A stretch of 64,000 nucleotides of DNA from assembly GCA_963777605.1 (NCBI GenBank), contig CAVZRV010000008.1:96001-160000 (forward strand), given 5' to 3'. The position numbers were made by a program, and so were the translations under genes. Positions 8,820-42,036 of the stretch are shown here, piece by piece; the first letter of the stretch is position 1, and every line of letters starts with the position of its first letter. This stretch comes from an uncultured Acidobacteriota bacterium (GTDB taxonomy: Bacteria; Acidobacteriota; UBA6911; RPQK01; JAPXNP01). Under the pieces are notes generated by a model. The model was not told where the DNA came from, did no database searches, and saw nothing but the letters and a program-made list of their open reading frames with translations.

Positions 8820-8836
8820 TTGGCACACCTATTGCA
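8820..8836 (+). promoter_or_regulatory. Sigma54 (-24/-12) promoter of the rubrerythrin-DUF2231 unit
   Basis: TTGGCACACCTATTGCA with GG at 8822-23 and GC at 8834-35 (canonical spacing), preceded by an AT-rich, IHF-like tract at 8786-8820. Confidence 0.88.
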
Positions 8837-13938: not shown

Positions 13939-14214
13939 GATCAGGCCTCCGTTTCTCCGGGTCAGTGATTATCAGGCGGAGGAGGACCCGGGCGGGCGAA
14001 TCGGCAGAATCGTTCGTCGAGTTCGCACTCGCAAAGTCAAACCGGAAACACGTCAAACAGCTCAAGACCGGATCCCTTCCGCAAAACAATTTGGGAATAC
14101 GCTTTGCAAAGCAGAATATGTCGTCCAGACGGAGGGCGTCAAGCCGCCACCAAGATGAGGGCGACAGGACACCAGGCCTTTCCTTTGGCTTCCGATCGTG
14201 CTATCTGTTCGCCC

Positions 14215-15462
14215 ATGGACCTTTCCATCCAGCGCCCCCAGTTTCGGCCTCGCATCGGTTTGTTCTCAACCCTGACAGTTGCCCTGACTCTTTCAGCGAT
14301 CCCCAGTCCGTTGAATGCCCAGGCTCAGTCCCCGGATTCTGTGAAGTGGACAATTCGGGCACTGACGGTGGATTCCAACGAGGGTATCGATCTCGCCGAC
14401 ATCAACCGTGACGGCAGGCTCGATGTCGTCGCCGGACGCAACTGGTATGCGGCGCCCGATTTCATCCCCCGGCCGGTGCGGCTGATCGACGACTGGTCGG
14501 GATATGTCCTCAGCAACGGCGACTTTGCCTATGACGTGAACCGCGACGGGTGGGTAGACGTCATCGCAGGGGCTTTCAATCTCCCGGAAGTCCACTGGTA
14601 CGAGAACCCCGGAGCGAAGGATCTCGCGATGGGCAAGCTCTGGCCGAAGCACCTTCTTGCCGATACCGGGGCGACGACGAATGAGGGGCAGTTGCTCTAC
14701 GACATCGACGGTGACGGCACGCCGGAGTGGGTGGTCAACAGCTGGACGCCGGAAACCCCTTTTGTTGCCTGGAGGTTTCGTCGCCAGGCGGACCCAGAAG
14801 ATGGAAAAGGAACCGACTCTTCCTCCCCGGCAGTCATTCTCGAGAAAGCAGTCATCGGCCGGGACCTCAACGGCCACGGCTTGGGCTTTGGTGACCTCAA
14901 CGGTGACGGACGTGCCGATCTTCTCTTCGAGTCGGGCTGGTACGAAGCACCGGCGACCGGTTCACTGTCGGAACCCTGGACGCTTCACCGGGACTGGAAC
15001 TTTCATGCCTCGATCCCGATTCTGGTCCGCGACCTCAACGGAGACGGTCGCAACGATGTCGTCATTGGCCGGGGACACGACTACGGCCTTTATTGGTGGG
15101 AACAGGGTCAACCCCGCTCCGACGGTACCTTGACCTGGACCGAGCATGTCATCGACGACTCCTTTTCCCAGGTCCATGCCCTCCACTTCGCCGACCTGGA
15201 TGGTGACGGGCAGGACGAACTGATCGCCGGAAAGCGGGTACTCGCCCACAATGGTCAGGATCCCGGTTCGGCTGACCCTCCCTGCATCGCCTACTACGCT
15301 TGGGACGCCCGGTTGAAGTCGTTCCAAAAGCACGTCATCGACGAAGGAAGAGTCGGCGGCGGCCTTCAGATTCGGACCGGAGACCTCAACGGAGACGGCC
15401 GCCTCGACATCGCCGTGGCGGGCAAGAGCGGGACGTACATTCTCTTCAACGAGGGGGACTGA
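14215..15462 (+). CDS. Secreted FG-GAP/VCBS repeat beta-propeller protein
   Basis: Repeated D(I/L/V)NxDGxxD motifs and a signal-peptide-like stretch. Start codon uncertain (14155 or 14215). Confidence 0.85.
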   Translation: MDLSIQRPQFRPRIGLFSTLTVALTLSAIPSPLNAQAQSPDSVKWTIRALTVDSNEGIDLADINRDGRLDVVAGRNWYAAPDFIPRPVRLIDDWSGYVLSNGDFAYDVNRDGWVDVIAGAFNLPEVHWYENPGAKDLAMGKLWPKHLLADTGATTNEGQLLYDIDGDGTPEWVVNSWTPETPFVAWRFRRQADPEDGKGTDSSSPAVILEKAVIGRDLNGHGLGFGDLNGDGRADLLFESGWYEAPATGSLSEPWTLHRDWNFHASIPILVRDLNGDGRNDVVIGRGHDYGLYWWEQGQPRSDGTLTWTEHVIDDSFSQVHALHFADLDGDGQDELIAGKRVLAHNGQDPGSADPPCIAYYAWDARLKSFQKHVIDEGRVGGGLQIRTGDLNGDGRLDIAVAGKSGTYILFNEGD

Positions 15463-15503
15463 TTCGAAGTCCGAAGTCCGAAGTTCGAAGTTCGAAGTTC
15501 AAA
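15463..15503. repeat. Heptamer tandem repeat (GAAGTYC)n between convergent genes
   Basis: ttcgaagtccgaagtccgaagttcgaagttcgaagttcaaag; related heptamers occur at 29500-29532 and 29685-29728. Confidence 0.75.
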
Positions 15504-15543
15504 GCGGGAAGCGAACGATTGTGCCGATTTCCGGCGTCGGCCC

Positions 15544-16626
15544 TCAAATTTTGAACGTCGAACGGAAGTTTGAGTAAATTTTCCCCGGTTGCATGGCATG
15601 TCCCCAGCTCAGCGTGTTGGCATCGGGGATGTCGGTGCGGGCCCCCGGGATTTTCCCGGCCTGGATCAGCGATCCGAACTGGAAGTAGACGGCATCCATA
15701 TCCGAATGCCAGCCCGGAAAATGGCCGAATCCGCCGTCATCGTTGCGGCAACCCACTACCCATTCCGCGGCCTTGTCCATGGCCGTGCGGCAGGCCGGGG
15801 CGTCACCGCCCAACTGATGAAGAATGAAGAGGGCGTCAAAGCAGGCGTGGACGTCCCAGTCCGGCTCCTTGATATTCCACCCTCCTTCGTTGGTCTGGTC
15901 TGCGAGGGTCCGTGTCACCATGGCATCGGCACGTGGGGTGGGTTCCCCGATCATGCGGAAGAAATGCGCCATGTGAAAGGTCGCTGCGACATGGTCCTGA
16001 AGGTAGCCATCCGCACCTTGCGAAGCAATCATGAAATCTTTGACGGCCTGCTTGTAGCCCGGCGGGAACTCGGTCCCGAGCGCAGCATAGAAGAGCGGAA
16101 AGAAACTGGTGGTATAGAGTGGCAACTGGGCGAACCTGTCGTTCTCGAAAAACGGGTCGAGGACAGCTGTCGGATCATAATCGGGAAGAGCGCCGAGAGC
16201 TCGAAGGGCCACAACCCCCTGCGTGGTGTTGTAAAGAACCGCCAACTCGCTCTCGGGATCGAACTCTCCCGCGAGGTTCCGGAACCGGCCATCCGGCTGT
16301 TGGTGCATCGCCACGAAGGCGATGCTGTTGGCCAGACTCGGCAATTCCCATCCCATCGTCTTGGCCAGGACCGCGGCATAGGTTACGGCGGCCAGGTCGC
16401 TTGCATTGGTATCGGAATTGCCCGGATAGTTGAGGTCGGGAGAGGCTGAATAACCTCCGTCGTCCCGACGGCATTGCTCGATAAACTTCCGGCATGCGTC
16501 GGAAATCGCTTCGAAGTCCACCCCCGGCTCCGGCGAGGCTTCCTGCCGCCTGCCGAAGGCGAGGGCGCCGGCCAGCGGGCCTGCCGAAAGCACTTTCAAC
16601 ACCGTTCGTCGATCCAGTGGCTTCAT
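15544..16626 (-). CDS. Tat-exported prenyltransferase/squalene-oxidase-repeat (alpha/alpha toroid) protein
   Basis: DRRTVLK Tat motif; repeats CRRDDGGY, QQPDGRF, QGADGY, QTNEGGW, CRNDDGGF. Confidence 0.75.
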   Translation of the reverse strand: MKPLDRRTVLKVLSAGPLAGALAFGRRQEASPEPGVDFEAISDACRKFIEQCRRDDGGYSASPDLNYPGNSDTNASDLAAVTYAAVLAKTMGWELPSLANSIAFVAMHQQPDGRFRNLAGEFDPESELAVLYNTTQGVVALRALGALPDYDPTAVLDPFFENDRFAQLPLYTTSFFPLFYAALGTEFPPGYKQAVKDFMIASQGADGYLQDHVAATFHMAHFFRMIGEPTPRADAMVTRTLADQTNEGGWNIKEPDWDVHACFDALFILHQLGGDAPACRTAMDKAAEWVVGCRNDDGGFGHFPGWHSDMDAVYFQFGSLIQAGKIPGARTDIPDANTLSWGHAMQPGKIYSNFRSTFKI

Positions 16627-16671
16627 GACTCATCTCCTCCTTCTCCGGTCAGAATGACCGTTTCTTTCGAG

Positions 16672-18006
16672 TCAGTCCAGCCCGTGCGGAGACTCCTCTT
16701 GCAGATCTCCCGGAACGCTGGCCGAGCCAGTCGTCAGCGAGCGGTGGGCCAGGTGGCCGATCAACTCCGCATGTTCCATCGCCTCGTGGATGACTCCCGT
16801 CCGTCCGGAACGGATAGATTCAAAAAAGCCGGTCAAGTGAAGCCGGGTCCCATCCGCCTCAACCTTGATCTCCTCGACGGGCGCCTGGTTCGCCTCAACA
16901 CCGGGTGAGATATCCTCCGTTTCCCCTCCGAGCTCTTTCGCGTATGCGGACCGGTAACGGTTCGGCCAGGCCAGGGCCGGTTCCACATACCGGCCGGCGC
17001 GGAACCGTCTAACCGACGCCGGAGAGAACTCGATCCTGCCCTCGGAGCCCTGCAGGGTCACCAGGAACCGGGGAGGGCCTTCCTGCTCGACAGCCGATAG
17101 GTAGATAGCGGGACCCTCGGCGAACTCAACGCGGGAAAAAACACGATCGGGAAGGTCCCAACGCGAGTCCTGCCGCTCGATGCCCCCGAGACTGGTCACT
17201 TTTACCGGCTTTGCGAGGGGGCGAACCGTGTGGATGGCGGCAAGGAGATGCTGAAAATGACGCATAGTGATCCCGGCCGAGTAGTCGGAGTATCCTCCCC
17301 ACGTGAAGAAGCGATGGGCATCGAACTCTCGCTCGGGACCTTCGTTGAGAAACCAGTCCCAGTTGCGCTTCTGAAGCGTTGCGCCGGGCGGGATCGGAGA
17401 AAAACCGCCCCAGTAGCCGCTTGCCTCTCCTTCGATGGAAAGCAGCTCTCCGATTTTGTCGTTGGCCAGCCACTGGGCGGCCGTGCGGGCCGTCGCGCTG
17501 CTCAACTGTTGCGCCCCCCAATACAGTGACGACGTCGGGCGATCAGTGGATTTGGTCTTGATGTTTGCCCATTCCTCCCACCGGTAGGTTCCCGGAGGCT
17601 CGACGTAAACCCGCTTCCCGCGGTGGAGTGCTTCTTCGACGACCTGGGCCGACAGGTGATCAGGAAGAGCCACGATCACTCCGTCGAGGTGCTCGGCCAG
17701 GAGCACTTTGATCCACATCGGAGTGAAGAACGATCGTCTCATCCCGAGTTCGCGCAGGCGATCGAAGTGGGGAGTCCAGAGGTCACCGCAGGAGACCACG
17801 TTGATGCCCGGATCATCTGCGACGAGACGCAGCAACTGAAATCCCCGGTTTCCCATCCCGATGAAGCCGATCCCCAGGGGGGCCTCACTTCCCGACTGGG
17901 AGAACTGTCCGATCAGCGGGGCGGTTATGAAGGGAGCAACGGCCGTATTCTGGAGAAAGCGACGTCGAGTGGGGCGATCGAATTGGGACAGCGGGCGACT
18001 CTTCAC
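16672..18006 (-). CDS. Tat-exported Gfo/Idh/MocA-family oxidoreductase (degenerate active site)
   Basis: TRRRFL, IGFIGMGNRG Rossmann motif, VYVEPP in place of EKP, WDWFL, FFTWGGYSDYSAG. Confidence 0.8.
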   Translation of the reverse strand: MKSRPLSQFDRPTRRRFLQNTAVAPFITAPLIGQFSQSGSEAPLGIGFIGMGNRGFQLLRLVADDPGINVVSCGDLWTPHFDRLRELGMRRSFFTPMWIKVLLAEHLDGVIVALPDHLSAQVVEEALHRGKRVYVEPPGTYRWEEWANIKTKSTDRPTSSLYWGAQQLSSATARTAAQWLANDKIGELLSIEGEASGYWGGFSPIPPGATLQKRNWDWFLNEGPEREFDAHRFFTWGGYSDYSAGITMRHFQHLLAAIHTVRPLAKPVKVTSLGGIERQDSRWDLPDRVFSRVEFAEGPAIYLSAVEQEGPPRFLVTLQGSEGRIEFSPASVRRFRAGRYVEPALAWPNRYRSAYAKELGGETEDISPGVEANQAPVEEIKVEADGTRLHLTGFFESIRSGRTGVIHEAMEHAELIGHLAHRSLTTGSASVPGDLQEESPHGLD

Positions 18007-18053
18007 GGGAAGAATATAGCCGCAGGAACCCGCACTGGCAACCAGGGTGCTTC

Positions 18054-19859
18054 TTAGTCCTCACCGATCACCAGTTTCAGCTGGCGGATCCGGTTATTGA
18101 CCTCTGTAAGGCTCAACTCCCGATAGCGAGGCGGGAGGAATCGGTTGTCCGTGCACTCCTTGACAGCAAGAAGATCCATCAACTCCAGGCGATCCACGTG
18201 CGCCGACGGGCGAAAGTCGGCAATCACCTCGGAAATGATTTCCGGGAGCGACCGGGGAGCTGCATCCTCCGCCTGGGTCTCGAATCGCCGCAGGCTCCGG
18301 ATCAGAATCCCCTCCATTTCGTTCCCACCGATCCGGTTGTCGTCGGGCAGCCGGGGCAACTCCTCCGCCGATATCGTCAGCCCGACTTTCCGGGCCATGG
18401 CGTAGAAGAGGGCGTGACGGCTTTCCTCGTCCTGAGGGGGAAACAGGGGAATGTGCACATCGAGCCTTCCCTGCCGCTTGAGATCGACTTCGAGCAGGTC
18501 GGGGCGGCTCGTGGCGAAGATCCAGACGATCTTACCCCGATTCCGGGTGTCGCTCATTTCGCGGGCCAGCATGCCGTACACGCGGCCGCTGAGGCCCGAG
18601 TCTCCCGATCCACTGTCGCGCCTTCCGGTCATCTGGTCGGCTTCGTCAACGAACACGATGACCTGTCCCAAGGCGTGCAAAATGTTGAACACCCGCTCCA
18701 GGTTGCCCTCGGTTGCACCTACCCACTTGTCCCGGAAATTCTTGATCTCGACGACCGGTATGCCGACCTCTCCGGCGAGGCATTCAACCAGGTAGGTCTT
18801 GCCCGTCCCGATGCGGCCGCACAACAGGTACCCCATTGGAATCGCCCGAAGCCGGCCGCGTCTCAGGAGGGCTGCGTCCTCTTTCAGCCAGCGCTTGGCC
18901 TCATTGTGCCCCGCCACATCATCGAGCCGGCGGGTCGTTTCGATGAACTCGATTCGACCGAAAGCCTCCTTCTCAATCGTCTCCTTCTTCACCCTGGTCA
19001 GATAGTCCATGGTGATCCGGAGATTGCCCACCCTGGCGCGCAACAGGAGTCCGCGGATATTGACCCGCGAGAGGCCGACAAGTTTCTCGGCCAGCTGATC
19101 GCGACCGACCTCGCAGTTCTCTTCGAAGGACTCATCCTGGGGAACTGCCTCGGCAACAAACTCGGCGATCTCGGCCGCGTTGGGAAGGTCGATCTTGATC
19201 TTCGCGGAATACGGGTTCTCTACCAGGTTTTGATTCAGGTCCGAGAGGTTCTCGGCGACGAGAACGGTTGCCACCGACGCCCCGGAAATCGCAGGGTCAC
19301 TCGACCAGTCGAGCAACTGGATCAGGTTCTGGCTCAACTGTCCGGAGAGATGGACCGGCTCACCCCGGGGGGCAATGAACTCCACGTAGTCGATTACAAT
19401 AGCGACCTTGAGGGGGTCGGGCACTCGCACTCCGCCGCCGTCAGTCCGGGTTCTGTGCTGGCTCCCCCGAAGGAACCGGGTAATCAGCTCGAGGGCCCGC
19501 TGCGGGTCCCTCGGAAGAAGATTGCTCAGGTCGAGTGCCGACATCCGGTCCGGTCCGGTGTCGGGCAACTCTGCCCAGGCGGTTCCCCGAAACGAGTCGA
19601 ATGACTTGAGAAACTGGTGGAACAGGTCGCCACCCTTGGGCACCCGGATCCCCCGCCCGCGGTCGTAGTCGATGATCACGTCGAATGGATCGAACATGAC
19701 CTGGGTCAGGAACTGCGTCAGGGAGGTGTACTGCATCCTGCCTTCAGACGCCGGAGCGCCCACCAGGTCGAACACGTCGCCGTAAAGAATGAACTGGCTG
19801 TTCGATCCGGACCGGTAGAGCTGACGCATCTCCTCGGCCCAGGCGGGAAGGTCGGCCAT
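18054..19859 (-). CDS. Classical-clade AAA+ ATPase with an N-terminal degenerate AAA-like domain
   Basis: Walker A GRIGTGKT, pore loop KWVG, Walker B VFVDEAD, SRH TSRPDLLEVDLKRQGRLD. The N-terminal half has the Walker-B-like AIVIDYVE but no P-loop. Confidence 0.9.
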   Translation of the reverse strand: MADLPAWAEEMRQLYRSGSNSQFILYGDVFDLVGAPASEGRMQYTSLTQFLTQVMFDPFDVIIDYDRGRGIRVPKGGDLFHQFLKSFDSFRGTAWAELPDTGPDRMSALDLSNLLPRDPQRALELITRFLRGSQHRTRTDGGGVRVPDPLKVAIVIDYVEFIAPRGEPVHLSGQLSQNLIQLLDWSSDPAISGASVATVLVAENLSDLNQNLVENPYSAKIKIDLPNAAEIAEFVAEAVPQDESFEENCEVGRDQLAEKLVGLSRVNIRGLLLRARVGNLRITMDYLTRVKKETIEKEAFGRIEFIETTRRLDDVAGHNEAKRWLKEDAALLRRGRLRAIPMGYLLCGRIGTGKTYLVECLAGEVGIPVVEIKNFRDKWVGATEGNLERVFNILHALGQVIVFVDEADQMTGRRDSGSGDSGLSGRVYGMLAREMSDTRNRGKIVWIFATSRPDLLEVDLKRQGRLDVHIPLFPPQDEESRHALFYAMARKVGLTISAEELPRLPDDNRIGGNEMEGILIRSLRRFETQAEDAAPRSLPEIISEVIADFRPSAHVDRLELMDLLAVKECTDNRFLPPRYRELSLTEVNNRIRQLKLVIGED

Positions 19860-19862
19860 GGT

Positions 19863-20741
19863 CTACTCCTTCTCCATCTCAGGTGGCAAATCCGGGAGTT
19901 CCGCAACTGAGCCGATCGTCTCGTCTCCGCTCAGCGAACTGAAAAACTCGGAGTGATCATCCATCCAACGGTTGGTTTCACTCATGGTGGACGTGACCGC
20001 ATCGAGCCGGCTCGTCATCAATTCCGGATTTCCACTCACTGCAGTCTCCTCCCGTATGAGCTCAACCTGTTTCTCGATCCGTTCCAACTCGGCGTCGATG
20101 ACCCGCAGGCTTTCCTGGGCACGCTCCAGGTTTTCCAGCCGTCGCCGGTTGATTTCCAGCGTACCCTGCAGCGACCGCTTCAGCGCAGTCTCTTCCGGCA
20201 TCGCGGCAATCCGCTTCTCGACCGTGGCGGCCTCTTTCTTCAACTCGGCGGCGTCGGCCGTGGGAAGGTTCGCCTCGATCAGTTCCTTAGAGCCGAGAAG
20301 TCGCAGGAAGATCGCCAGCAACTGGTTGAGGTTTCGGGTGCGCAGGTCCCGGAACTGACCAAGGCTGTCGGAATCAAGGCTCTCCGAATCCCCCAGGATT
20401 CGCCGGCACTCGGTCAGAAGTGCCCGGTATCGTTCCCGGTTGGAAATCGTCAACCGGGCAACGGCCCGCTCGACTTTTTCTTTCCAGGAGACCTGGGCCT
20501 CCATGAGCCGACTCGCCTCGACCAGATTCTGGAACCGCCTGCTGCTGGCCAGTCCGAACAGCAGCGAGATCTCAAACGCCGCTCCGAGCAGCCAGAAGCC
20601 GGGATTTGCCAGGCCCGCGACTACGAATGCACCCAAGCCCATCTTGTTGATCGGCATCGAACCCAACAGCGGCAATGCGGACTTCCAGTGAAAAGCCTCG
20701 CCCACGTAATCCCAGAAACTGAGGTTATCGGGTGGTTTCAT
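19863..20741 (-). CDS. Membrane-anchored (1-2 TM) coiled-coil protein
   Basis: Hydrophobic GLGAFVVAGLANPGFWLLGAAFEISLLFGL followed by a long E/R/L-rich helical region; overlaps or abuts both neighbours. Confidence 0.75.
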   Translation of the reverse strand: MKPPDNLSFWDYVGEAFHWKSALPLLGSMPINKMGLGAFVVAGLANPGFWLLGAAFEISLLFGLASSRRFQNLVEASRLMEAQVSWKEKVERAVARLTISNRERYRALLTECRRILGDSESLDSDSLGQFRDLRTRNLNQLLAIFLRLLGSKELIEANLPTADAAELKKEAATVEKRIAAMPEETALKRSLQGTLEINRRRLENLERAQESLRVIDAELERIEKQVELIREETAVSGNPELMTSRLDAVTSTMSETNRWMDDHSEFFSSLSGDETIGSVAELPDLPPEMEKE

Positions 20742-21607
20742 TCCCTGCCTGTTTCAATACTCCGAAACGCTCGTGTTACCGAGGCCACCGCCTCCTTGAA
20801 TGCCGTTTCTTCCTGCACGAGCATCGGATCACTGTTGCGGGTCGGAGGGATTACATCATCGAAGACCCGGGCAATGCGGCCTGGCCCGTGATTCATCAAC
20901 CAGACCCGGTCGCCGAGGTAGACGGCCTCGGCAATCGAATGGGTGACCAGGAAAACTGTCGCCTCGACTTCGTGCCAGAGGTTGGTGATCAAGCGCTGCA
21001 TGTCGTAACGGGTGGGTTCGTCCAGCGCCGAGAAGGGCTCGTCCATGAGAATGATGTGGGGCTTCAGTGCCAGGGTCCGAGCCAGGGCGACCCGCTGCTG
21101 CTGTCCTCCCGACAACTGGTGTGGATACTTCTGCTCATGGCCGGTCAAACCAACCCGCTCGATCCACTGCATGGCCCGGTCCTTGATTTCCGACCGGCTC
21201 AGTCCCATTTCCAAGCGATTGAGTTCCAGGCCGAAAGAAACATTGCGCAGTACCGTCAAGTGGGGGAATGAACTGTACTTTTGGAATACCATTCCCCGGT
21301 CCCGGCCCGGTCCGGTCACGATTCTTCCGCGTACTCGCACCTCACCCAGTGTCGGAGGGTAAACATCGGGGAAGCCCTGAATAAGGTTCAAGATGGTCGA
21401 CTTCCCGCAGCCGGAAGGACCGATGATCGAGATGAACTCGCCCGTTCCCGGTTTGTCTTCGACCAGAAAGGAGACTCCTTTGATCGCAGTGAAGGCATTC
21501 GGCGTTCCGGCATCAAAGGTCTTTTCCACGTCGCGGAATTCCACAATCGGTGGAGCCCCGTTTCCGGACGAGACAGAGTCCTTGCTCTTACTCCCCTGAA
21601 ATCTCAT
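20738..21607 (-). CDS. ABC transporter ATP-binding protein (NitT/TauB/SsuB type)
   Basis: GPSGCGKS, LSGGQQQR, LMDEPFSALD, VTH. The ATG at 21607 overlaps the permease stop (ATGA). Confidence 0.93.
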   Translation of the reverse strand: MRFQGSKSKDSVSSGNGAPPIVEFRDVEKTFDAGTPNAFTAIKGVSFLVEDKPGTGEFISIIGPSGCGKSTILNLIQGFPDVYPPTLGEVRVRGRIVTGPGRDRGMVFQKYSSFPHLTVLRNVSFGLELNRLEMGLSRSEIKDRAMQWIERVGLTGHEQKYPHQLSGGQQQRVALARTLALKPHIILMDEPFSALDEPTRYDMQRLITNLWHEVEATVFLVTHSIAEAVYLGDRVWLMNHGPGRIARVFDDVIPPTRNSDPMLVQEETAFKEAVASVTRAFRSIETGRE

Positions 21608-22461
21608 GAATGCTGCTCCCGGTACGGGAACAGGTACCGCCCCAGCACGGCCCAGATCCGATCCGTAACAAAGGCCAGGGCGACGATCACCAGGAGGACC
21701 AGGTAGATGTGTTCCCGGGGGCCGCGCCGCTGCGAAATGATGATGATCCCGCCCAGTCCTTTGCCGATATCGACCATTTCGGCCAGGATGATGTAGCTCC
21801 ACCCAATTCCGAACCCGAGGCGCATGGCACTGTAGATGTCGACCCAGGCCACTCCGAGAAGGACCTTGAGGACCACCTGCAACTTGCTTGCCCCGAGAGT
21901 GAATGCGGTTTTGAGATAAATCTCGTCGACGCCGTCCACGGCCTGGACGATCAGGGGCAAGAGGTAGATGACAAAGGCAAGGGCAAGGAATGCCACCTTC
22001 TGGGTTTCCCCGGTCCCGAACAAGCTCAGCGTCAGGGGGACCAGGGCAGGAATCGGCAGGTAGGCACCGAACACCGAAAGGGGAGTGAAGAGGGCTTTGA
22101 CCTTTCCGAAAGCCCCCATCGCAACACCCAGCGGAAAGGCGATCAGGGCCCCGACCGCAAAACCGGTCACCACCCGCCCCAGAGAAATCACGGCATTTCT
22201 GGTCAGGGCCCGGTCGAACCAGAGGCTACCGAACGAATTGGCCACCTCCATCGGGTTTGGCAGGATCGCGGGAGTGATGATCCGATCCTCGGGGCGGGCC
22301 CCGCTGGTAATGAACCACCAGACTCCCACCAGGAGGATGATGGGGACCAGCCCGAGAACCCACCTTTGCCACCCGGGAAGATCTTCCCGAATCTTCAAAA
22401 GATCAGACAACCAGTTCCGGGCAGCGGGCGTTTCCAATTGTGCACTGGAGTCTGCGTTCAC
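21604..22461 (-). CDS. ABC transporter permease (SsuC/TauC type)
   Basis: ILPNPMEV, EAA-like TAFTLGAS, ILAEM...GLG; six hydrophobic segments. Confidence 0.92.
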   Translation of the reverse strand: MNADSSAQLETPAARNWLSDLLKIREDLPGWQRWVLGLVPIILLVGVWWFITSGARPEDRIITPAILPNPMEVANSFGSLWFDRALTRNAVISLGRVVTGFAVGALIAFPLGVAMGAFGKVKALFTPLSVFGAYLPIPALVPLTLSLFGTGETQKVAFLALAFVIYLLPLIVQAVDGVDEIYLKTAFTLGASKLQVVLKVLLGVAWVDIYSAMRLGFGIGWSYIILAEMVDIGKGLGGIIIISQRRGPREHIYLVLLVIVALAFVTDRIWAVLGRYLFPYREQHS

Positions 22462-22516
22462 CAGCCTTCCTCCCTCTGCTCCAATCCTTGCTCCCGGTAC
22501 TCCCAGTCAAGAGTCT

Positions 22517-24244
22517 TCATTGCTGCTCCGGAGGATAGACCGATACCTCTACCCTGCGGTTGAGCGCGTGATTGTCGGGATCTTCCATGTCTGCTGGTTC
22601 ATCCCAACCTTTCCCTTCCACAATGAACTTGTTCGGATCAAATTTGAACTTCTTTACCAGTGCCGCCTTTACGGCATCGGCACGATCGAGGGAGAGCTTT
22701 CGCACGTCCTCGTCCCTGACGCCTTTCCCGCGCATCGAGGCATCGGTGTGCCCTACAACCGCAATGGTTGCCCTTTCGTATTGCCCCGCCAACCGTCCCA
22801 CCTTCTCGATAGTGGCGTCCGCGGTCGGGTCGTAGAGGGTGTTGGCGATAGGCCGGCCCAGGTCGTCGTGGGTCGGCTCATAGATGTTGGCCGAGTTCGG
22901 GTAGAAGTTGATTCGGATGGTCTGCGTCAGGATCGGGGCTTCCGCCTGAACTCTGGAATAGGACGTCGGGACGAACTGGGTCCGGTACTCATCCTTCTGT
23001 GACGCAAACGCTCCTTCCTTCTCCAGTTGCTGGATTACGCTGAAATCCATCACCTCGTCAAAGCGGACCGGGGTGCCGACCATGCCCAACTCCCGGTAAA
23101 CAAAGGTGATGTTTTTCCAGGTGCGTTCAAAGTTCGCCGCCTCGTTCTGATTCAGGAAGAAGGACTTGTTCTCGGCAAAGTTGGTTGAGTGGGCGTCCGC
23201 GGCCATCCCCTGGACCTCATCAACCGGCATGCCATAACCTTCGGCCATCCACTGGAACGCCTTCGCCTTGAAGGTGTCGTTCTTGAGTTCGTCCATTGCC
23301 TTGAACACGCCGGCAACCAGTCCCTTGATGATCTCCGGATGGTCCTTGGCAAAGTCGGCTCGGGCCGCCCATACGTCGGCAATCAGCTTGTTGGCCTCCG
23401 ACGTCGTGGTCAGGATCCGGGTCCCCGGAACCTTCTCCGGAATGTTGTAGATGTCCGGGGCCCAGGAGACACAGGCATCGATCGATTTGTCGGCGACGAA
23501 GGCGGCAGCCGCCTCAAAGGCCGTTGCCGTGTAGCGATGGTTCACTTCGCTCGGCTGGATACCCGCGTTCAGAAGCAGATTGTTGATGAAGTACTGGGAC
23601 GGGCTGTTCTGGGCGTAGACGACGGTTTTGCCCTTCAAGTCACGAGCCGTTGCGACCGCTCCGCGCACGACGATCCCGTCTCCGCCATTCGACCAGTCGA
23701 CCTGCTGAAAGATCCGGGGCGCCGTCCGGGAATCCCGCATCAGTTCAGGGGCGAACATGACCATCATGTCCAGAGTTCCCCAGAGGATGTGACTCTCACC
23801 CGAAACAAAAGCGTCCCTCGCCACGACCGGGTCGTCGATCAGCTTCAGATTGACCTTGAAACCGTATTCCTTGGCAAAAATGCTGTCGGCGTTCGGGCTA
23901 AACCCGTGGTTGGCCGCCACGATCGGGAGCCAGCCGATCCAGACGTTGATCGGAAACTCAACGATCTTCTCGTTGGCATCCCACTTGTAATTGCTGACCC
24001 CTTGAACGGGGGGCAGCTTCTCTGCCGGCCGATAGGTGTACTCGCTGACCGTGGTGATTCCCACGGTATCGGGAGCTTCGTACTTTCCCATCTGGTTGAA
24101 CTTCGCGAGATCGACATCGCCGGGTCCTGCACCTCCCGGCGCGATGAAGTCCCAGAAGTAATAACCGGCCCCTGAAAAAAGGACGATCACGAACAGAATG
24201 ATGACTATTTTGCCGAGCAGGGTCGGCCCTACTTTCTCCGCCAT
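22517..24244 (-). CDS. Membrane-anchored ABC substrate-binding protein (NMT1/SsuA-like) fused to a C-terminal OmpA-like peptidoglycan-binding domain
   Basis: N-terminal TM; WIGWLP, DWSNGGDGIV, VSWAP, IADVW; C-terminal INF...S, GHTD, LSLDRADAVK, NRRVEV. Confidence 0.9.
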   Translation of the reverse strand: MAEKVGPTLLGKIVIILFVIVLFSGAGYYFWDFIAPGGAGPGDVDLAKFNQMGKYEAPDTVGITTVSEYTYRPAEKLPPVQGVSNYKWDANEKIVEFPINVWIGWLPIVAANHGFSPNADSIFAKEYGFKVNLKLIDDPVVARDAFVSGESHILWGTLDMMVMFAPELMRDSRTAPRIFQQVDWSNGGDGIVVRGAVATARDLKGKTVVYAQNSPSQYFINNLLLNAGIQPSEVNHRYTATAFEAAAAFVADKSIDACVSWAPDIYNIPEKVPGTRILTTTSEANKLIADVWAARADFAKDHPEIIKGLVAGVFKAMDELKNDTFKAKAFQWMAEGYGMPVDEVQGMAADAHSTNFAENKSFFLNQNEAANFERTWKNITFVYRELGMVGTPVRFDEVMDFSVIQQLEKEGAFASQKDEYRTQFVPTSYSRVQAEAPILTQTIRINFYPNSANIYEPTHDDLGRPIANTLYDPTADATIEKVGRLAGQYERATIAVVGHTDASMRGKGVRDEDVRKLSLDRADAVKAALVKKFKFDPNKFIVEGKGWDEPADMEDPDNHALNRRVEVSVYPPEQQ

Positions 24245-24328
24245 GGTCCTACTCCTTTGTGACGTTCTCAACTGCGGCGAATCGCAATTTCCTGGCTGCT
24301 TCCACGATAGGCTCCAACTCCAAAGAGC

Positions 24329-25093
24329 CTAGCTCTCGGGCGTCTTAAGACCCATCTCCCGAACGGGAGGCTCGGCAGCGGACTCAGATTCCTGAGGTGG
24401 TGCCTCCGTCGGGCCAAGGTCGAGCCCGTAGGCAGACGCAAACTCGGCCAGGGCCTGGTCGGCCATCGCCTCCTGCTCCGCCTCCTTCAGCTGCACCTCG
24501 CTCATATCAATGGAGGAAGAGGCGACCCGGGCCCGCCCGGCAGCCTTGTCTCTGCGCTCCGTGAGGTATTCCTCGACGCGTGAAATGGTGTCGCCGGTGC
24601 CGCCGATCGAACTGATCATGCCCTGGGCCATTTCCTGAAGTTCGGCCTGGGCCTCCATCAGCTCGGTCTCCGAGATCATCCGCTTCAGGGATTCGATCTT
24701 CGCCCGGGCCTCGGTAACCGCTACTTCCCGCGTCTTCACCAGTTGCTGGTAGGTCTGCTCCTGGGCCTCCAACTGCTGCCGGTTTTCCTCGAGCTGCTCC
24801 TTGACCGTTCGCAACTGGAGCGCGTACTGCCCCGCCGCCGTGCGGTTGCCCGCCTTCAGGTGTGCAGCCGCCTTTCCGGCCAACTCCCGTTCCTGTGTTT
24901 CGAGGTTCTTGACCTGGCGCATCAAGCGCTCGATGAACCCGGCGTGGTTTGCCAGGTTGTCGTTGAACCGGGCAATCTGCCCCCGCAGGTTCTCCTTCTC
25001 CGCTTCGATCAATGCCTGCGGGTTGGCGCGTTCGATGCCCGAAATGAAAAGGCTGAGAAAGCCTTTGAACAGGTTACTGACTCGTCTCCACAT
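24329..25093 (-). CDS. pspA: PspA/IM30/Vipp1 (ESCRT-III superfamily) protein
   Basis: Amphipathic N-terminal helix MWRRVSNLFKGFLSLFISGIERANP followed by a long coiled coil and an acidic tail; RBS GGAGG. Confidence 0.88.
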   Translation of the reverse strand: MWRRVSNLFKGFLSLFISGIERANPQALIEAEKENLRGQIARFNDNLANHAGFIERLMRQVKNLETQERELAGKAAAHLKAGNRTAAGQYALQLRTVKEQLEENRQQLEAQEQTYQQLVKTREVAVTEARAKIESLKRMISETELMEAQAELQEMAQGMISSIGGTGDTISRVEEYLTERRDKAAGRARVASSSIDMSEVQLKEAEQEAMADQALAEFASAYGLDLGPTEAPPQESESAAEPPVREMGLKTPES

Positions 25094-25474
25094 GCCCCCT
25101 CCTTCAGCCTGAGTCCAGACAGACTTCGGTCACACTCGTTCGTCGTAGAGCATGATCTTCCTTCCGGGGTTATCGCTCATGCTCGCCGTTGCTCGAAGGC
25201 GAATCTGGTTCAGACCGGCGCAAGCCCCTGAATCTGCGGAAGAACATATCATCGTTGCCCGAAAAAAAGATACTGGTGGCGGCGGAGTTTTATTCAAGAT
25301 TGTTCCTCGCCATGCTCTGGAAACCGATCAAGGCGGACAGGCCGGGTTAGTTGACACAATCCGCCACCTGCAGCCCGATTAGTGGCACAATTCAGTCTGC
25401 TTCCATCGGACGGAGAGCGACGCCGGGCAAAGTGAGGGTGGCCGGCTGATGGATTGAAGCGGAGGCCTGATGCC

Positions 25475-26428
25475 ATGAGCGAAACCATCGTCTTCCTGAC
25501 TGATCACGGTTACCTGGTGGTGTTTCTCTGGGTTCTTGCCGAACAACTCGGCCTTCCTCTCCCGTCCTCGGTCGTCCTGCTGGTGGCCGGGGCGGCCGCC
25601 GCATTTGGACAACTCTCGCTCGGAACCGTGGTACTGGTGGCCCTGGTTGCCTCCACGATCAGTGACGTCATCTGGTACGAAATCGGCAGGAGACGGGGGA
25701 TGGCGGTCCTGGGACTGCTTTGCAGGATCTCTCTGGAACCGGACTCCTGTGTGCGCCGTACAGAAGAGCGGTTTGCCCGTCACGGAGTCCGCTCCCTCCT
25801 CATTGCCAAGTTTGTGCCCGGCCTCAACACTGCGGCGCCGCCACTGGCCGGCATGTTCCAGATGGGTTTCTGGCGATTTCTACTCTTCGACGTTCTCGGC
25901 GGCCTTTTCTGGATCGGGACCTCCACCATTCTGGGCTACCTCTTCTCCCGCCAACTGGAGGACCTGGTCGGATGGGCGCGCCAGTTCGGGCTCGGAGTAG
26001 GGATCTTGTTGGGGCTTTGCGCGCTCTTGTACGTCGGATGGAAATTCATGCAGCGTCAGCGTTTCATTCGTGAGATCAGCGTTTCGGCGATTGCTCCGGA
26101 TGAACTCAAGCAAATGCTCGACTCCGGCGAGTCTCCGTTGATCGTCGATCTCCGCCACGGCGTTGATATTGCCGCCAACCCCGTTCGACTCCCCGGAGCA
26201 CTGCAAATGTCCCCCTCGGCGATTCGGGATGGGAAGACCCGCCTTCCAGGCGATCGTGAAATCGTCCTCTACTGCACCTGACCGAACGAGGCCTCCAGCG
26301 CCCGGGTGGCGCTGCAACTGAAGCGGCTCGGAATCGAGCGCGTGCGCCCGCTGCGGGGTGGTCTGAACTCCTGGCGGGAACTGGGTTACCCACTGGAAAG
26401 TCAGGTTGAGGGGCACTTCAACCTGTAG
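25475..26428 (+). CDS. DedA(VTT)-rhodanese fusion selenoprotein; in-frame TGA at 26279-26281 read as Sec
   Basis: DedA motifs EQLGLPLP and KFVPGL; rhodanese IVDLR...LPGA; IVLYCT-TGA-PNEASSARVA...VRPLRGG..W continuing to TAG at 26428; RBS GGAGG at 25461. Confidence 0.88.
26296..26314 (+). promoter_or_regulatory. Candidate bacterial SECIS hairpin
   Basis: CAGCGCC-CGGGT-GGCGCTG, a perfect 7-bp stem with a G-containing loop starting 21 nt after the UGA. Confidence 0.75.
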
Positions 26429-26440
26429 AATGGTTCTGAA

Positions 26441-27457
26441 ATGGAAAAGAAAGTCAAAATCGGAGTCGTCGGCCTGGGCTTCATGGGCCTCACCCACCTC
26501 CAGGCTTATCGAAATATGAACAATGTGGTCCTTGCCGCCGTTTGCAGCAGCGACCCGAAAAAGCTCTCGGGCGATTTATCCGGCATCTCCGGGAATCTGG
26601 GAAACAGCGGCGAGAAAATGGACTTTGGAGACGCGGCCCGTTACGCGGAAGCGCTTTCAGTGATCGAAGATCCGCGAGTCGATGCGATTGATCTCTGTGT
26701 CCCGACCGACCTGCACGACAAACTGGCCGCGGCCGCTCTCGATGCCGGCAAACACGTCCTGGTTGAAAAACCGATGGCGCTGAATGAAGACGCCTGCCGG
26801 AGGATGATCCGTGCGGCCGACCGGTCCTCACGGGTCCTGATGGTCGGTCAGGTGCTGCGATTCTGGCCCGAATACCGGGAAGCCCAACGGCTCGTTTCAG
26901 ACGGAACGCTCGGTCAGGTCAGGTACGCGACCTTCAATCGACGCTGCGGAACCCCGAAGTGGGGCGGTTGGCTGCGCGACCCGGCCCGAAGCGGAGGAGG
27001 GGCCTTCGATCTTCTCATCCACGATTTCGACTTTGCACTCTACCTGTTCGGGCTTCCCCGCGCGATTCGAGCCGGGGGCTATTTGAGGAGCGACAATACC
27101 ATCGACCTGGTTCATGCCGATCTGGAAACATCCGATGGAGCCCGGGTCAGGGTTTCTGGCGGCTGGTACCCGGGAGAAGTGCCGTTCGGGGCGAACTTCA
27201 CGATTGCTGGAGACAAAGGGACGCTGGAGTTCACTTCGGCAGGGGGCAAACTGATCCTGTACCCGAACGAGGGGACCGAATCTGTTGTCGAGGCGGCCGG
27301 TGATCCCTTCCAGGGGGAGTTGACGGAGTTCATCCGCTGCTGTCTCGCCGGCAAGCCCAGCACAATCTGCCCGCCCGCGCAGTCGGCCCAGTCCGTAACG
27401 GTCACCAATGCCGCGCTGGTGGCCCGCGCCACCGGCGAAGCCCAAACTCTGGTCTAA
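26441..27457 (+). CDS. Gfo/Idh/MocA-family oxidoreductase
   Basis: IGVVGLGFMG, HVLVEKPMA, SGGGAFDLLIHDFD. Confidence 0.93.
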   Translation: MEKKVKIGVVGLGFMGLTHLQAYRNMNNVVLAAVCSSDPKKLSGDLSGISGNLGNSGEKMDFGDAARYAEALSVIEDPRVDAIDLCVPTDLHDKLAAAALDAGKHVLVEKPMALNEDACRRMIRAADRSSRVLMVGQVLRFWPEYREAQRLVSDGTLGQVRYATFNRRCGTPKWGGWLRDPARSGGGAFDLLIHDFDFALYLFGLPRAIRAGGYLRSDNTIDLVHADLETSDGARVRVSGGWYPGEVPFGANFTIAGDKGTLEFTSAGGKLILYPNEGTESVVEAAGDPFQGELTEFIRCCLAGKPSTICPPAQSAQSVTVTNAALVARATGEAQTLV

Positions 27458-27458
27458 A

Positions 27459-27608
27459 GTAGTCCAGGCTGCCAGCCTGAGATGTTGACCAGGGCTGCCA
27501 GCCCGGTGCCGCGCCTGAACTCCCCGCCAGGCAAGCTGCCTGGCAGACATACCTGGCAAGGCTGCCAGGACTACCGTGGCGCCAGGCGGACATTCCAAGT
27601 GGCGCTAC
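27459..27608. repeat. GTAG-type REP cluster (REPIN-like doublet), family B
   Basis: GTAGTCCAGGCTGCCAGCCTGA ... CCTGGCAAGGCTGCCAGGACTAC; related units at 35011-35062 and 40196-40411. Confidence 0.8.
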
Positions 27609-28981
27609 TACACTTCTTCGGGCACCACGTAAGGTGGTCGGTAGCGTCGCTTCAGGAATCCGTTTGCTTCGTCGTCATTGACGAACCGCTCGTTGTGGTC
27701 GTCGAAAACAACCGTCCGTCCGAGCCGGTACGAAATGTTGCCGAGGTGGCACAGGGCCGTGGACATGAACCCTTCCTGGATGTCGGCATGGAGGTCCTGC
27801 CACCGGCGTGACCGGACGCAGTCGATGAAGTTCTGAAAGTGCCGCTGCACCGAATCTTCCCGGACCCAGGGTTCCGACTGGAAGGAGCGACCGGCCGCCT
27901 CCTTGGCGCCCTCGTAGTCCATCTGGGTCCAGTTGATGCTGAAGCCGGGCTTGCCTTCCCGCCCCAGAAACGTCTTGAACTCCGAGCCGTGGAGCATGCC
28001 CCAGCCCTCGGTGCCGAAAAAGAAGTTGCCTATTTTCATCCCTTCCTCGGCTCCCGTGTACCAACCTCTGACTTCGAAATGGAGGATGGTCCCGTCCGGG
28101 TACTGGAACGTCGTGTACTGGGTATTGGGGGTCTCCTGGTCGGTTGCGCCCGGTGTCTCGTGGAGCCCGCCAACTCCGTGAATAACCCGGGGATGCTCCC
28201 GCTTTCCCATGCCCCAGCGCATTACATCCATCTGATGAATCCCCTGGTTTCCCATGTCGGTGTCACCGAAATCCCACACCCAGTGCCAATTGTAATGTAG
28301 CCGGTTTTCGTTGTACGGACGCCATTCGGCCGGTCCCAGCCAGCGGTCGTAGTGCAGTCCGGCCGGCACCGGACCCTCCTTCCCCTTCCCGATCGGGTCG
28401 CGCGGCTTGTAGCAGAGCGCCTTTGCCGCGTAGAGCTCTCCGAGCCCACCATCGCGCATGAATTCGACCGCGCGCTGGGCCACCAGGTCACTTCGGCTCT
28501 GGGTTCCCGCGGCAACCACCCGGTCGTACTTGCGTGCCGCCTCGATGGCTTTTCGTCCCTCCTGGATGTTGTGACAGGTCGGCTTCTCACAGTAGACATC
28601 CTTGCCGGCCTGGCAACCCCAGATCGTCATCAGGGCGTGCCAGTGGTCGGGTGTAGCGATGGAGATGGCGTCTACTTCCTTGTCATCCAGGACTCTCCGG
28701 AGATCGGTTTCGGTCTTTGGGTTCCCTCCGTTCTGGGCCTTCATTCTGGAGAGGTGGTCGCCGAACAGGCGCTCGTCTGCGTCTACCACGTATGCTACAC
28801 GGACGTTCCGGATTTTCTGATAGGCCTTGTAGTGATCGGCACCCCGGCTTCGGATGCCGACGATGGCGACGTTGATCGTTTCGTTCGGGCTTTGCGCCCC
28901 GTAGCTGGTCCGGGCAACTGCGGCCGAAGCGACCGTGGCAGTCACGGCGGAACTTTTCTGGATGAATTGGCGACGGTTCAT
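27608..28981 (-). CDS. Tat-exported Gfo/Idh/MocA-family oxidoreductase
   Basis: MNRRQFI, IVGIRSRG, ATPDHWH, DVYCEKP, HYNWHW, NQGIHQMD. Confidence 0.93.
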   Translation of the reverse strand: MNRRQFIQKSSAVTATVASAAVARTSYGAQSPNETINVAIVGIRSRGADHYKAYQKIRNVRVAYVVDADERLFGDHLSRMKAQNGGNPKTETDLRRVLDDKEVDAISIATPDHWHALMTIWGCQAGKDVYCEKPTCHNIQEGRKAIEAARKYDRVVAAGTQSRSDLVAQRAVEFMRDGGLGELYAAKALCYKPRDPIGKGKEGPVPAGLHYDRWLGPAEWRPYNENRLHYNWHWVWDFGDTDMGNQGIHQMDVMRWGMGKREHPRVIHGVGGLHETPGATDQETPNTQYTTFQYPDGTILHFEVRGWYTGAEEGMKIGNFFFGTEGWGMLHGSEFKTFLGREGKPGFSINWTQMDYEGAKEAAGRSFQSEPWVREDSVQRHFQNFIDCVRSRRWQDLHADIQEGFMSTALCHLGNISYRLGRTVVFDDHNERFVNDDEANGFLKRRYRPPYVVPEEV

Positions 28982-29199
28982 GTGAAATCCTCCCTTGAAG
29001 GCCACGAGCCGGATGACTGCAGAAGCGGATCCGGAGGATCACCCGGAATCGGGTCCGGCCCGAGACTTTATCCCCCCATCAGAAGGTGTCAACCGGCTTG
29101 TCTGGGCAGCATCGGCCGCCTGCAAAGCGGCAATAATCTCCTGCAAATTTGTTTGGGAGCCCGCAATTGACAACCGGGGGGAGTGAATCAAAAATCGAA

Positions 29200-29608: not shown

Positions 29609-29684
29609 GGGGGTATAGCTCAGATGGAAGAGCACCTGCTTTGCACGCAGGGGGTCGTCGGTTCGAGTCCGATTACCTCCACCA
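29609..29684 (+). tRNA. tRNA-Ala(UGC)
   Basis: 76-nt cloverleaf: acceptor GGGGGTA/TACCTCC with G3:U70, anticodon arm CCTGC-TTTGCAC-GCAGG, GTTCGA T-loop, encoded CCA. Confidence 0.97.

Positions 29685-40524: not shown

Positions 40525-42036
<1,512 letters not shown>

Follow-up and report, generated by a model that had tools for sequence, protein, structure and literature searches.

A conserved gene cluster encoding a divergent PspA, a tandem AAA+ ATPase and a putatively wall-tethered ABC importer in an uncultured Acidobacteriota bacterium

A cluster of six genes was analysed within a 64,000-nucleotide stretch of DNA from an uncultured Acidobacteriota bacterium (assembly GCA_963777605.1, contig CAVZRV010000008.1, positions 96,001 to 160,000 of the forward strand). 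This whole stretch is referred to below as the window, and coordinates are positions within it. The six genes are arranged head to tail within 18054-25093, all on the minus strand according to the list of open reading frames (ORFs). A preliminary description of this DNA had placed six co-oriented genes here, and the minus-strand ORFs and the Pfam assignments agree with it. Pfam assigns families to five of the six, the exception being a 292-residue membrane protein. The genes, and the two features that border them, are as follows.

24329..25093, minus strand: pspA, 254 amino acids (PF04012 in Pfam)
22517..24244, minus strand: envelope protein combining a solute-binding protein (SBP) domain with an OmpA-like domain (SBP-OmpA), 575 amino acids; the ORF reaches a TTG at 24271
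21604..22461, minus strand: ATP-binding cassette (ABC) permease of BPD_transp_1 type, 285 amino acids (PF00528)
20738..21607, minus strand: ABC ATPase, 289 amino acids (PF00005); the ORF spans 20738-21802
19863..20741, minus strand: helical protein with a predicted transmembrane (TM) hairpin, called the TM protein below, 292 amino acids; no Pfam or NCBIfam family above cut-off
18054..19859, minus strand: type II classical AAA+ ATPase, 601 amino acids (PF00004 at residues 345-471)
25094..25453, no strand: intergenic region of 360 nt between pspA and a divergent VTT/DedA-family gene, read directly
18021..18034, minus strand: weak terminator-like hairpin directly after the AAA+ stop codon, from a terminator scan

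The last four genes had been described as overlapping or 3 nt apart, and reading the junctions directly from the sequence bears this out. The stop codon of the permease overlaps the start of the ABC ATPase in an ATGA, and the ABC ATPase starts at the ATG at 21607; the stop of the ABC ATPase overlaps the start of the TM protein in a second ATGA; and the TM protein and AAA+ genes are separated by 3 nt. The gap between SBP-OmpA and the permease is 55 nt, and that between pspA and SBP-OmpA is 84 nt, measured to an ATG at 24244. This ATG is most likely the start of SBP-OmpA, giving 575 residues rather than the 584 of the long ORF, because sequence conservation begins there and AAAGGAG lies just upstream.

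One genome per species was scanned for related loci, which gave at least 537 confirmed relatives among at least 600 pattern matches. The best 80 loci, drawn from many phyla, were analysed with the six window proteins as queries against their ORFs. The preliminary description had staked its proposal on conservation of the ABC genes with pspA and the AAA+ gene, and conservation is what we find: all six families occur together on one strand in 49 of the 80 loci. The arrangements are listed here.

39 loci: the order seen in the window
6 loci: an extra SBP-OmpA copy before PspA (Rifleibacteriota and other metagenome-assembled genomes)
4 loci: all six genes, in permuted order
4 loci: TM-AAA-PspA-(X)OmpA, without permease or ATPase
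5 loci: PspA-AAA only
17 loci: cut by a contig end, following a known order as far as this is visible
5 loci: full flanks, with PspA not nearby (L009, L065, L025, L044 and L053)

Other genomes repeat the six families in the window's order at 39 of the 80 loci, which is more than chance would be expected to give. The linkage of PspA to a classical AAA+ ATPase is likewise conserved: PspA lies beside the AAA+ gene or within the cluster in 60 of the 80 loci, and of the 20 loci without it, 15 run into the end of their contig on the side in question.

The cluster is also modular. The permutations leave three pairs of genes intact, namely PspA with SBP-OmpA, the permease with the ABC ATPase, and the TM protein with the AAA+ ATPase. 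Five loci keep only PspA and the AAA+ gene, which we therefore take to be the core pair; at one of them (L049) the minimal pair is flanked by unrelated genes. Since PspA-AAA pairs occur without ABC genes, and since the cluster divides into three two-gene units, the ABC part is dispensable for the core function. Three of the four loci that lack permease and ATPase (L069, L076 and L078) were scanned for domains, and the partner in that arrangement shows an OmpA domain only, with a weak NMT1_2 trace in L078. On balance we favour a reading of the cluster as a self-contained accessory module for envelope maintenance, in which PspA and a dedicated AAA+ ATPase would form the core, joined by a membrane anchor protein and a wall-tethered ABC importer.

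Two of the loci carry insertions within the cluster: about 6.3 kb separates the TM-protein gene from the AAA+ gene in L025 (2636-8977), and in L053 (349-5217) an insert of about 4.9 kb lies between SBP-OmpA and the permease.

The window PspA scores 38.6 bits with PF04012 (PspA_IM30; cut-off 33.9), in a match that spans residues 2-220 and profile positions 3-216 of 220, and it is the only match to this family in the 6.73-Mb genome. This is far below the 134-149 bits of the canonical PspA proteins of related genomes. Among 41 related genomes, 20 have a PF04012 match and eight have an orthologue of the AAA+ ATPase. All eight encode a PspA on the same strand as the AAA+ gene, 5.2-5.5 kb upstream of it, that scores 32-42 bits, whereas six other related genomes have a canonical PspA (134-149 bits) and lack the AAA+ orthologue. 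Because of this difference in score, the AAA-linked PspAs are best described as a divergent subfamily by sequence, and in the genomes examined this lineage was seen only together with the AAA+ ATPase. A profile built from 32 AAA-linked PspA homologues matches the structure of Vipp1 (7o3w) with an E value of 1.1e-4. These proteins have a conserved amphipathic N-terminus and a variable Pro/Ala-rich linker, followed by a C-terminal motif of the type K[DE]MGP, which reads REMGL in the window protein. The canonical PspAs of relatives, in genomes without the AAA+ ATPase, end in LKKKMGI, and the M-G core of the tail is probably ancestral.

The AAA+ ATPase had been described as a tandem of a dead and an active classical AAA+ domain, and its sequence agrees with this. 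The first domain (D1, approximately residues 1-300) is degenerate, with FILYGDVFDL at the Walker A position and VAIVIDY at the Walker B position, and thus neither GK[ST] nor DE. The second domain (D2) has intact motifs and is followed by a conserved C-terminal helical extension. The two motifs singled out in the preliminary description, the Walker A sequence GRIGTGKT and the pore loop KWVG, are found in D2 at residues 348-355 and 378-381; Walker B (VFVDEADQ) is at 402-409 and the second region of homology, with its arginines, at 449-467. All of these are invariant or nearly so across 15 homologues. Within the pore loop W379 and G381 do not vary, V380 hardly varies, and residue 378 is lysine in 15 of the 15 aligned sequences. 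The N-terminal half of the protein is as conserved as D2 in the same homologues.

In the AlphaFold2 model of the ATPase (mean predicted local distance difference test, pLDDT, 73.8), the N-terminal half has strands and helices arranged as in an AAA core, and a helical lid comes after them. Foldseek aligns the model over 604-675 columns to p97, Cdc48, Rix7, SPATA5 and MSMEG_0858, with E values of about 1e-13 and TM-scores of only 0.27-0.41. Only D2 matches solved chains in a phmmer search of the PDB, where the best matches are the D2 domains of VAT and Cdc48, and the first 60 distinct PDB sequences are all of Cdc48/p97/AFG2/NVL/Rix7 type, plus one i-AAA. Among NCBIfam models the scores are 78.1 bits for CDC48 (TIGR01243, cut-off 802.65), 72 for FtsH, 57 for PAN and 45.4 for CdvC (cut-off 650), each of them well short of its cut-off. 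Pfam finds no MIT or Vps4_C domain in the protein at E ≤ 0.01, and no match to CDC48_N or CDC48_2. Homologues are abundant: 7140 of 8000 scored sequences match at E ≤ 1e-10, and for the top 120 full-length identity is 64-100%. From these comparisons the protein appears to be a distinct type II classical AAA+ ATPase, with a predicted-inactive D1 and a Cdc48-like ancestry.

Distant homologues of the entire tandem ATPase were also seen on Paenibacillaceae megaplasmids (L108, 7001-8554, and L109, 7001-8287), with 28-32% identity over 71-96% of the query. They are annotated merely as 'ATP-binding protein' and their neighbours are small hypothetical genes; an SLT transglycosylase and ArdA are encoded near the Aneurinibacillus plasmid homologue. 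These may be a separate plasmid-borne branch of the AAA+ family.

The 292-residue TM protein is encoded directly upstream of the AAA+ gene in every arrangement among the 80 loci that contains it. Its AlphaFold2 model (pLDDT 86.7) has an N-terminal amphipathic helix, a small strand hairpin, and two hydrophobic helices (residues 31-45 and 48-66) with an NPGFW turn between them. The helical hairpin around this conserved NPGFW covers residues 34-65 and is followed by about 220 residues of long helices. The TM helices of the model are short, and instead of crossing the membrane twice in full they may form a re-entrant hairpin; the helical bundle of about 220 residues is predicted to be cytoplasmic. 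No Pfam or NCBIfam family reaches its cut-off for this protein. A profile search found 1961 representatives of the family at E ≤ 1e-3, with lengths of approximately 270-310 residues among the best 150; the matches listed have no Pfam domain and carry the source name 'hypothetical protein', except for one with a JGI label. We found no fused forms among the longer proteins, which is weak evidence, and three long open frames that had looked like fusions are chance read-through instead.

In their paragraph on operons of this kind, Ravi et al. (PMC11237479) call the TM partner a 'Snf7 homolog with a TM segment'. We did not reproduce this homology. Alignment of the TM protein with the PspA profile by hhalign gave a probability of 1.3%, and of 13% and 9% when a 172-sequence profile was used. 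No Snf7 or PspA match was present among the 25 of 31 matched Pfam families shown for 33 members of the family, and a search of the genome with PF03357 (Snf7) at E ≤ 10 found nothing. A profile search of the PDB matched only unrelated coiled coils, and Foldseek gave no match at E ≤ 1e-3 and no ESCRT-III chain among the matches listed. The best VIA-wide Z score was 10.8, to generic helical bundles and below the level that is meaningful for helical proteins, with no ESCRT-III structure among the 50 VIA matches listed. These results are not evidence that the homology is absent. When the Atlas was queried with a homologue of the TM protein, the nearest named cluster was mycobacterial PspM (score 0.88), which is a lead only; identity with PspM (Rv2743c) was rejected, as a genome search with PF25587 at E ≤ 10 gave four weak matches, none of them at the TM gene.

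The ancestry of the ATPase and the position of the TM protein bear on a different view of PspA, as a regulator or adaptor that gates a Cdc48-like ATPase. The ATPase would in reality serve to extract or unfold membrane proteins, for instance the hairpin-TM protein, the transporter or inner-membrane proteins that have been damaged. The ATPase is indeed nearer to unfoldases of the Cdc48/VAT, AFG2 and FtsH types than to Vps4, the TM protein gene is translationally coupled to the AAA+ gene that always follows it, and E. coli PspA binds and inhibits an AAA+ protein, PspF, according to a review (PMC7619361). PspF, however, belongs to another AAA+ clade, the sigma-54 activators, and Pfam finds no DNA-binding domain in the cluster. 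Pfam also finds no protease or other output domain fused to the ATPase or encoded beside it, and in five of the 80 loci the PspA-AAA pair occurs with neither the TM protein nor the transporter nearby. We regard a purely regulatory PspA as quite unlikely, and retain the reading in which PspA is itself acted on by the ATPase.

The SBP-OmpA protein has a short cytoplasmic tail, one TM helix (the hydrophobic segment lies at residues 13-40 of the long ORF), a binding domain of the TauA/SsuA class and a C-terminal OmpA-like domain. Pfam identifies OmpA (PF00691) at residues 481-567 with 42.5 bits against a cut-off of 27.2, and also NMT1, Phosphonate-bd and NMT1_2. The best PDB matches are TauA (6ssy, E 2.7e-10) and Omp38 (3td3, E 1.4e-9). 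The OmpA-like domain has the NRRVE signature and is predicted to bind peptidoglycan. Many positions in the protein are at least 95% conserved among 49 homologues, and there are several conserved Trp-containing motifs. The permease matches PF00528 with an E value of 5.9e-13 and has several hydrophobic segments, while the ABC ATPase matches PF00005 (E 2.7e-28) and has the Walker A motif GPSGCGKST, the signature LSGGQQQR and the Walker B motif ILMDEP.

From the families present, these three proteins appear to make up an ABC importer of the NitT/TauT type. For the permease the nearest NCBIfam models are SaoP, at 109 bits, and TauC, at 88 bits against 342, both under cut-off; for the ABC ATPase they are PhnT2, TauB, NtrCD and SaoA, again all under cut-off; the binding domain is nearest to the TauA and SsuA models (TauA 39 bits against a cut-off of 490). 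Since all of the equivalog models fall far below their cut-offs, no substrate can be assigned. Our guess would be an amine or osmolyte-type ligand, perhaps a sulfonate-type osmolyte.

The presence of an otherwise recognizable importer raises the question of whether two separate modules simply travel together: a solute importer and a PspA-AAA stress pair, co-regulated under envelope or osmotic stress and not physically coupled. The permutation of the cluster as two-gene units, the existence of minimal PspA-AAA pairs and of forms lacking permease and ATPase, and the resemblance of the importer parts to ordinary NitT/TauT-type components are all consistent with this. Several observations argue the other way. 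The ATGA overlap of the ABC ATPase and TM-protein genes links the transport and AAA units translationally; on permutation it is PspA, and not the permease, that stays with the SBP-OmpA gene; the whole block is kept across many phyla, with correlated divergence; and a TM-anchored SBP-OmpA fusion would be unusual in a plain importer. The correlation was measured as bit scores, those of the five partners tracking that of the AAA+ ATPase with Spearman coefficients of 0.87-0.91 (n = 55-64), where related loci are not independent of one another. We consider two uncoupled modules unlikely, and a single accessory envelope module with an optional transport part remains the reading that we prefer.

A tree of the AAA+ ATPases was built from 74 rows, with 7 partial rows left out. 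The loci in which PspA lies downstream form one well-supported clade, and the minimal pairs arose at least twice, in one case within the seven-gene clade. Phylum labels are mixed on the tree, where Acidobacteriota needs at least six changes on well-supported branches; this suggests some transfer, with the usual caveat that applies to binned genomes. Of 41 related genomes 8 carry the module, and of the 31 among them that are of high quality 7 do; for the genomes sampled from the phylum the figures are 21 of 301, or 19 of 274 when only those of high quality are counted. This patchy distribution may reflect horizontal transfer.

Patchiness of this kind and mixing of phyla would also fit an anti-phage or abortive-infection system, in which a membrane-active effector is controlled by an AAA+ switch, and the AAA domain does weakly resemble the IetA/IteA defence ATPases (44 bits in PADLOC, 35 bits in NCBIfam). 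PADLOC otherwise gave generic coiled-coil, ABC and AAA matches only, with no model specific to a defence system. Pfam finds no nuclease, protease or other typical effector in the cluster, and the genes around it in the window encode oxidoreductases, a prenyltransferase-like protein and a DedA-family protein; they are not defence or mobile-element genes. A role in defence is in our view very improbable.

For the accessory envelope module we propose the following mechanism. PspA would bind and polymerize on the cytoplasmic face of the inner membrane by means of its conserved amphipathic N-terminus. The AAA+ ATPase would act as a hexamer that, at the expense of ATP and through its aromatic pore loop (KWVG), pulls out PspA subunits or unfolds them, and so would disassemble, recycle or remodel the polymer, in a role analogous to that of Vps4 on ESCRT-III. 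To treat PspA and the ATPase as substrate and enzyme is the most economical assumption, because no other two genes of the cluster are kept by themselves, because the pore loop is intact, and because in the genomes examined this PspA lineage is found only with the ATPase. The most likely role of the TM protein, coupled as it is to the ATPase, would be to anchor or position the ATPase, PspA or both at the membrane. The binding protein would be held at the inner membrane by its TM helix and at the peptidoglycan by its OmpA-like domain, and the importer may supply or report a small periplasmic solute and tie the machine to a wall-anchored site. The transporter and the doubly tethered binding protein could thus serve as an optional periplasmic input or anchor.

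A stronger form of this proposal can be put forward only tentatively, and we hold it to be possible rather than probable. The cluster would then encode a true ATP-driven ESCRT-III machine, present in bacteria of many phyla, that arose independently of archaeal Vps4: a Cdc48-derived ATPase whose D1 ring is dead would act on a polymer of a specialized PspA, the membrane-inserted hairpin protein would nucleate or anchor this polymer, and the SBP, pinned to wall and membrane, would form with its ABC transporter a periplasmic sensor or anchor that couples the state of the wall relative to the membrane, or the supply of osmolytes, to remodelling.

Several of our results weigh against the proposal. 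The five loci with full flanks and no PspA nearby carry the AAA+ gene or a partial cluster, and the Paenibacillaceae megaplasmid homologues have no PspA neighbour either. Four permuted loci lack both permease and ATPase, and therefore transport cannot be essential. The idea that K[DE]MGP is an AAA-specific docking motif is weakened, since its M-G core is shared by canonical PspAs of genomes without the AAA+ ATPase, and for this reason we do not treat the core as a specific docking signal. The confidence of the AAA+ model is only moderate. Finally, the ATPase is not an orthologue of Vps4, because it lacks the MIT and Vps4_C domains, because it scores lower with CdvC than with CDC48 and FtsH, and because its neighbours are VAT, Cdc48 and p97. 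The term 'Vps4-like', used in the preliminary description, applies by analogy only: the ATPase shares with Vps4 the aromatic pore loop and the position of its gene near one of the ESCRT-III superfamily, but not the domain content or the family score.

Compared with the CdvB/CdvC and Snf7/Vps4 systems, the cluster has in common an ESCRT-III-superfamily gene beside a classical AAA+ ATPase with an aromatic pore loop, and by analogy the expected logic is also the same, namely ATP-driven disassembly of a polymer. It differs in having no MIT domain, Vps4 C-terminal helix or winged-helix (wH)/ESCRT-II gene. Its ATPase is a tandem with a dead D1 rather than a single AAA cassette, and scores nearer to Cdc48 and FtsH than to CdvC; and the partner is of PspA type rather than Snf7 type, with an ABC importer and a peptidoglycan anchor attached. 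The Cdc48/p97/VAT proteins are the best neighbours of the ATPase in sequence and fold. They share its D1-D2 tandem, and the pore loop is like the SKWVGESE of VAT D2. Unlike them, the window protein has no N-terminal double-psi barrel, has lost Walker A and B from D1, falls far short of the TIGR01243 cut-off, and has a conserved C-terminal extension of about 100 residues.

The PspF-PspABC system of E. coli, LiaIH of B. subtilis and ClgR-PspA-PspM-PspN of M. tuberculosis similarly combine a PspA-family effector with a small membrane partner, and the psp system of E. coli also encodes an AAA+ protein, as the cluster does. In contrast to these systems, the cluster shows no sigma-54 activator, PspB or PspC, LiaI or LiaF, or ClgR in Pfam searches, none of which was aimed at PspB. 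With TauABC and SsuABC (NitT/TauT-type importers) it shares a BPD_transp_1 permease, an ABC_tran ATPase and a TauA/SsuA-class binding domain, and with the OmpA-like anchors MotB, Pal and YiaD it shares an OmpA-like domain with the NRRVE signature; it differs from TauABC and SsuABC in the fusion of its SBP to a TM anchor and an OmpA domain, and in the embedding of these genes in a PspA-AAA operon. An archaeal parallel is the ProX binding protein reported at some archaeal ESCRT loci (PMC10936438).

The class of operon and the idea of remodelling have been described before. Ravi et al. (mSystems 2024; preprint 2020; PMC11237479) set them out in one paragraph, from comparative genomics only: PspA with a protein of two AAA+ domains, the N-terminal copy inactive, an ABC ATPase, a permease and a PBPB-OmpA protein, for which they proposed ATP-dependent remodelling 'comparable to Snf7 and VPS4'. 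The preliminary description had pointed to similar neighbourhoods in comparative genomics of the PspA/Snf7 superfamily, and the paragraph of Ravi et al. bears this out. The window operon has the gene content of this class, with an N-terminal AAA copy that is inactive, an SBP fused to OmpA and a TM protein, and the remodelling idea is shared as well; the difference is in the TM partner, which is labelled a Snf7 homologue in that account, a homology that we did not reproduce. We found no bench study of a PspA/AAA+/ABC operon in the literature searched, and the operon is an uncharacterized member of a known, computationally defined class. To that account our analysis adds the counts, the modularity with its minimal pairs, the recognition that these PspAs are a divergent subfamily, the patchiness of the module among genomes and the placement of the ATPase as Cdc48-like. 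As the idea was already published as a genomic inference, the value here lies in these counts, in the modular anatomy and in the corrected placement of the ATPase, and not in a new kind of system.

According to a 2025 review, bacteria appear to lack a Vps4-like ATPase (PMC7619361), and a 2024 survey describes systems of ESCRT-III plus ATPase as confined to archaea and eukaryotes (PMC10936438). For the disassembly of PspA/Vipp1 polymers in bacteria, the operon offers a concrete and widely conserved candidate: a dedicated classical AAA+ ATPase that remains beside a specialized PspA when all of the other genes have been lost. The putatively wall-tethered transporter hints at how the periplasm may communicate with such a machine.

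The region 25094-25453 is presumed to contain the promoter of the cluster. A GGAGG ribosome-binding site precedes pspA there. A promoter scan found no sigma-70-like match in this region, and no sigma-54-like site with two or fewer mismatches is present on its minus strand, so control of pspA by sigma-54 was rejected for want of a matching site upstream. A conserved promoter was also rejected, as the upstream regions of the window and five relatives do not align beyond the ribosome-binding site. The hairpin at 18021..18034 is the sole terminator-like site on the coding strand near the end of the cluster, and is weak evidence, since the scan gave 7 such sites in 10 kb where chance alone would give 9.6; for terminators and promoters alike, the counts do not exceed those in shuffled sequence. 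No terminator-like site was found on the minus strand inside 18054-25093.

The preliminary description had reported no homologue of pspBC, pspF or liaRS. This holds in Pfam for the cluster and its immediate flanks, with no search aimed at PspB or LiaRS, and does not hold further away: a gene with a PspC domain is present on another contig of the genome, and of the 42 matches to sigma-54 activators in the genome, one is in the window at approximately 7363-7863 on the plus strand, about 10 kb from the cluster. The cluster is thus not a classical psp operon of the PspF/PspBC type, having no adjacent sigma-54 activator, sigma-54 promoter or pspC (PspB was not searched for). A perfect TGGCAC-N5-TTGC sigma-54 promoter consensus occurs at 8821-8835 on the plus strand, about 1 kb downstream of the activator domain; at a distance of about 10 kb, the activator and this consensus are probably unrelated to the operon.

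Divergent from pspA across the 360-nt gap is a gene for a membrane protein of the VTT/DedA family (25454-26281, plus strand). DedA proteins have a connection to envelope integrity. This neighbour does not adjoin the cluster in any of the 80 related loci. At the other end, a GFO-family gene (16672-18006) lies on the same strand as the operon and starts 47 nt past the AAA+ stop codon, and it too is not conserved with the cluster. More widely, the regions 14104-18006 and 26441-29005 that flank the operon contain several GFO/IDH/MocA oxidoreductase genes, an FG-GAP repeat protein gene and a prenyltransferase/squalene-cyclase-like gene. Among the 80 loci there was only one match to these flanking genes, a GFO-family gene that is not adjacent to the cluster. 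As the flanks found in the window are not conserved beside it, the cluster is a self-contained unit.

Elsewhere in the window there is a full-length 16S rRNA gene at 40529-42036 on the minus strand, with no match to 23S or 5S rRNA within the 64 kb. The only tRNA gene in the window, for Ala-TGC at 29609-29684, lies 11 kb away on the opposite strand, and the 16S gene may be an unlinked rRNA gene.

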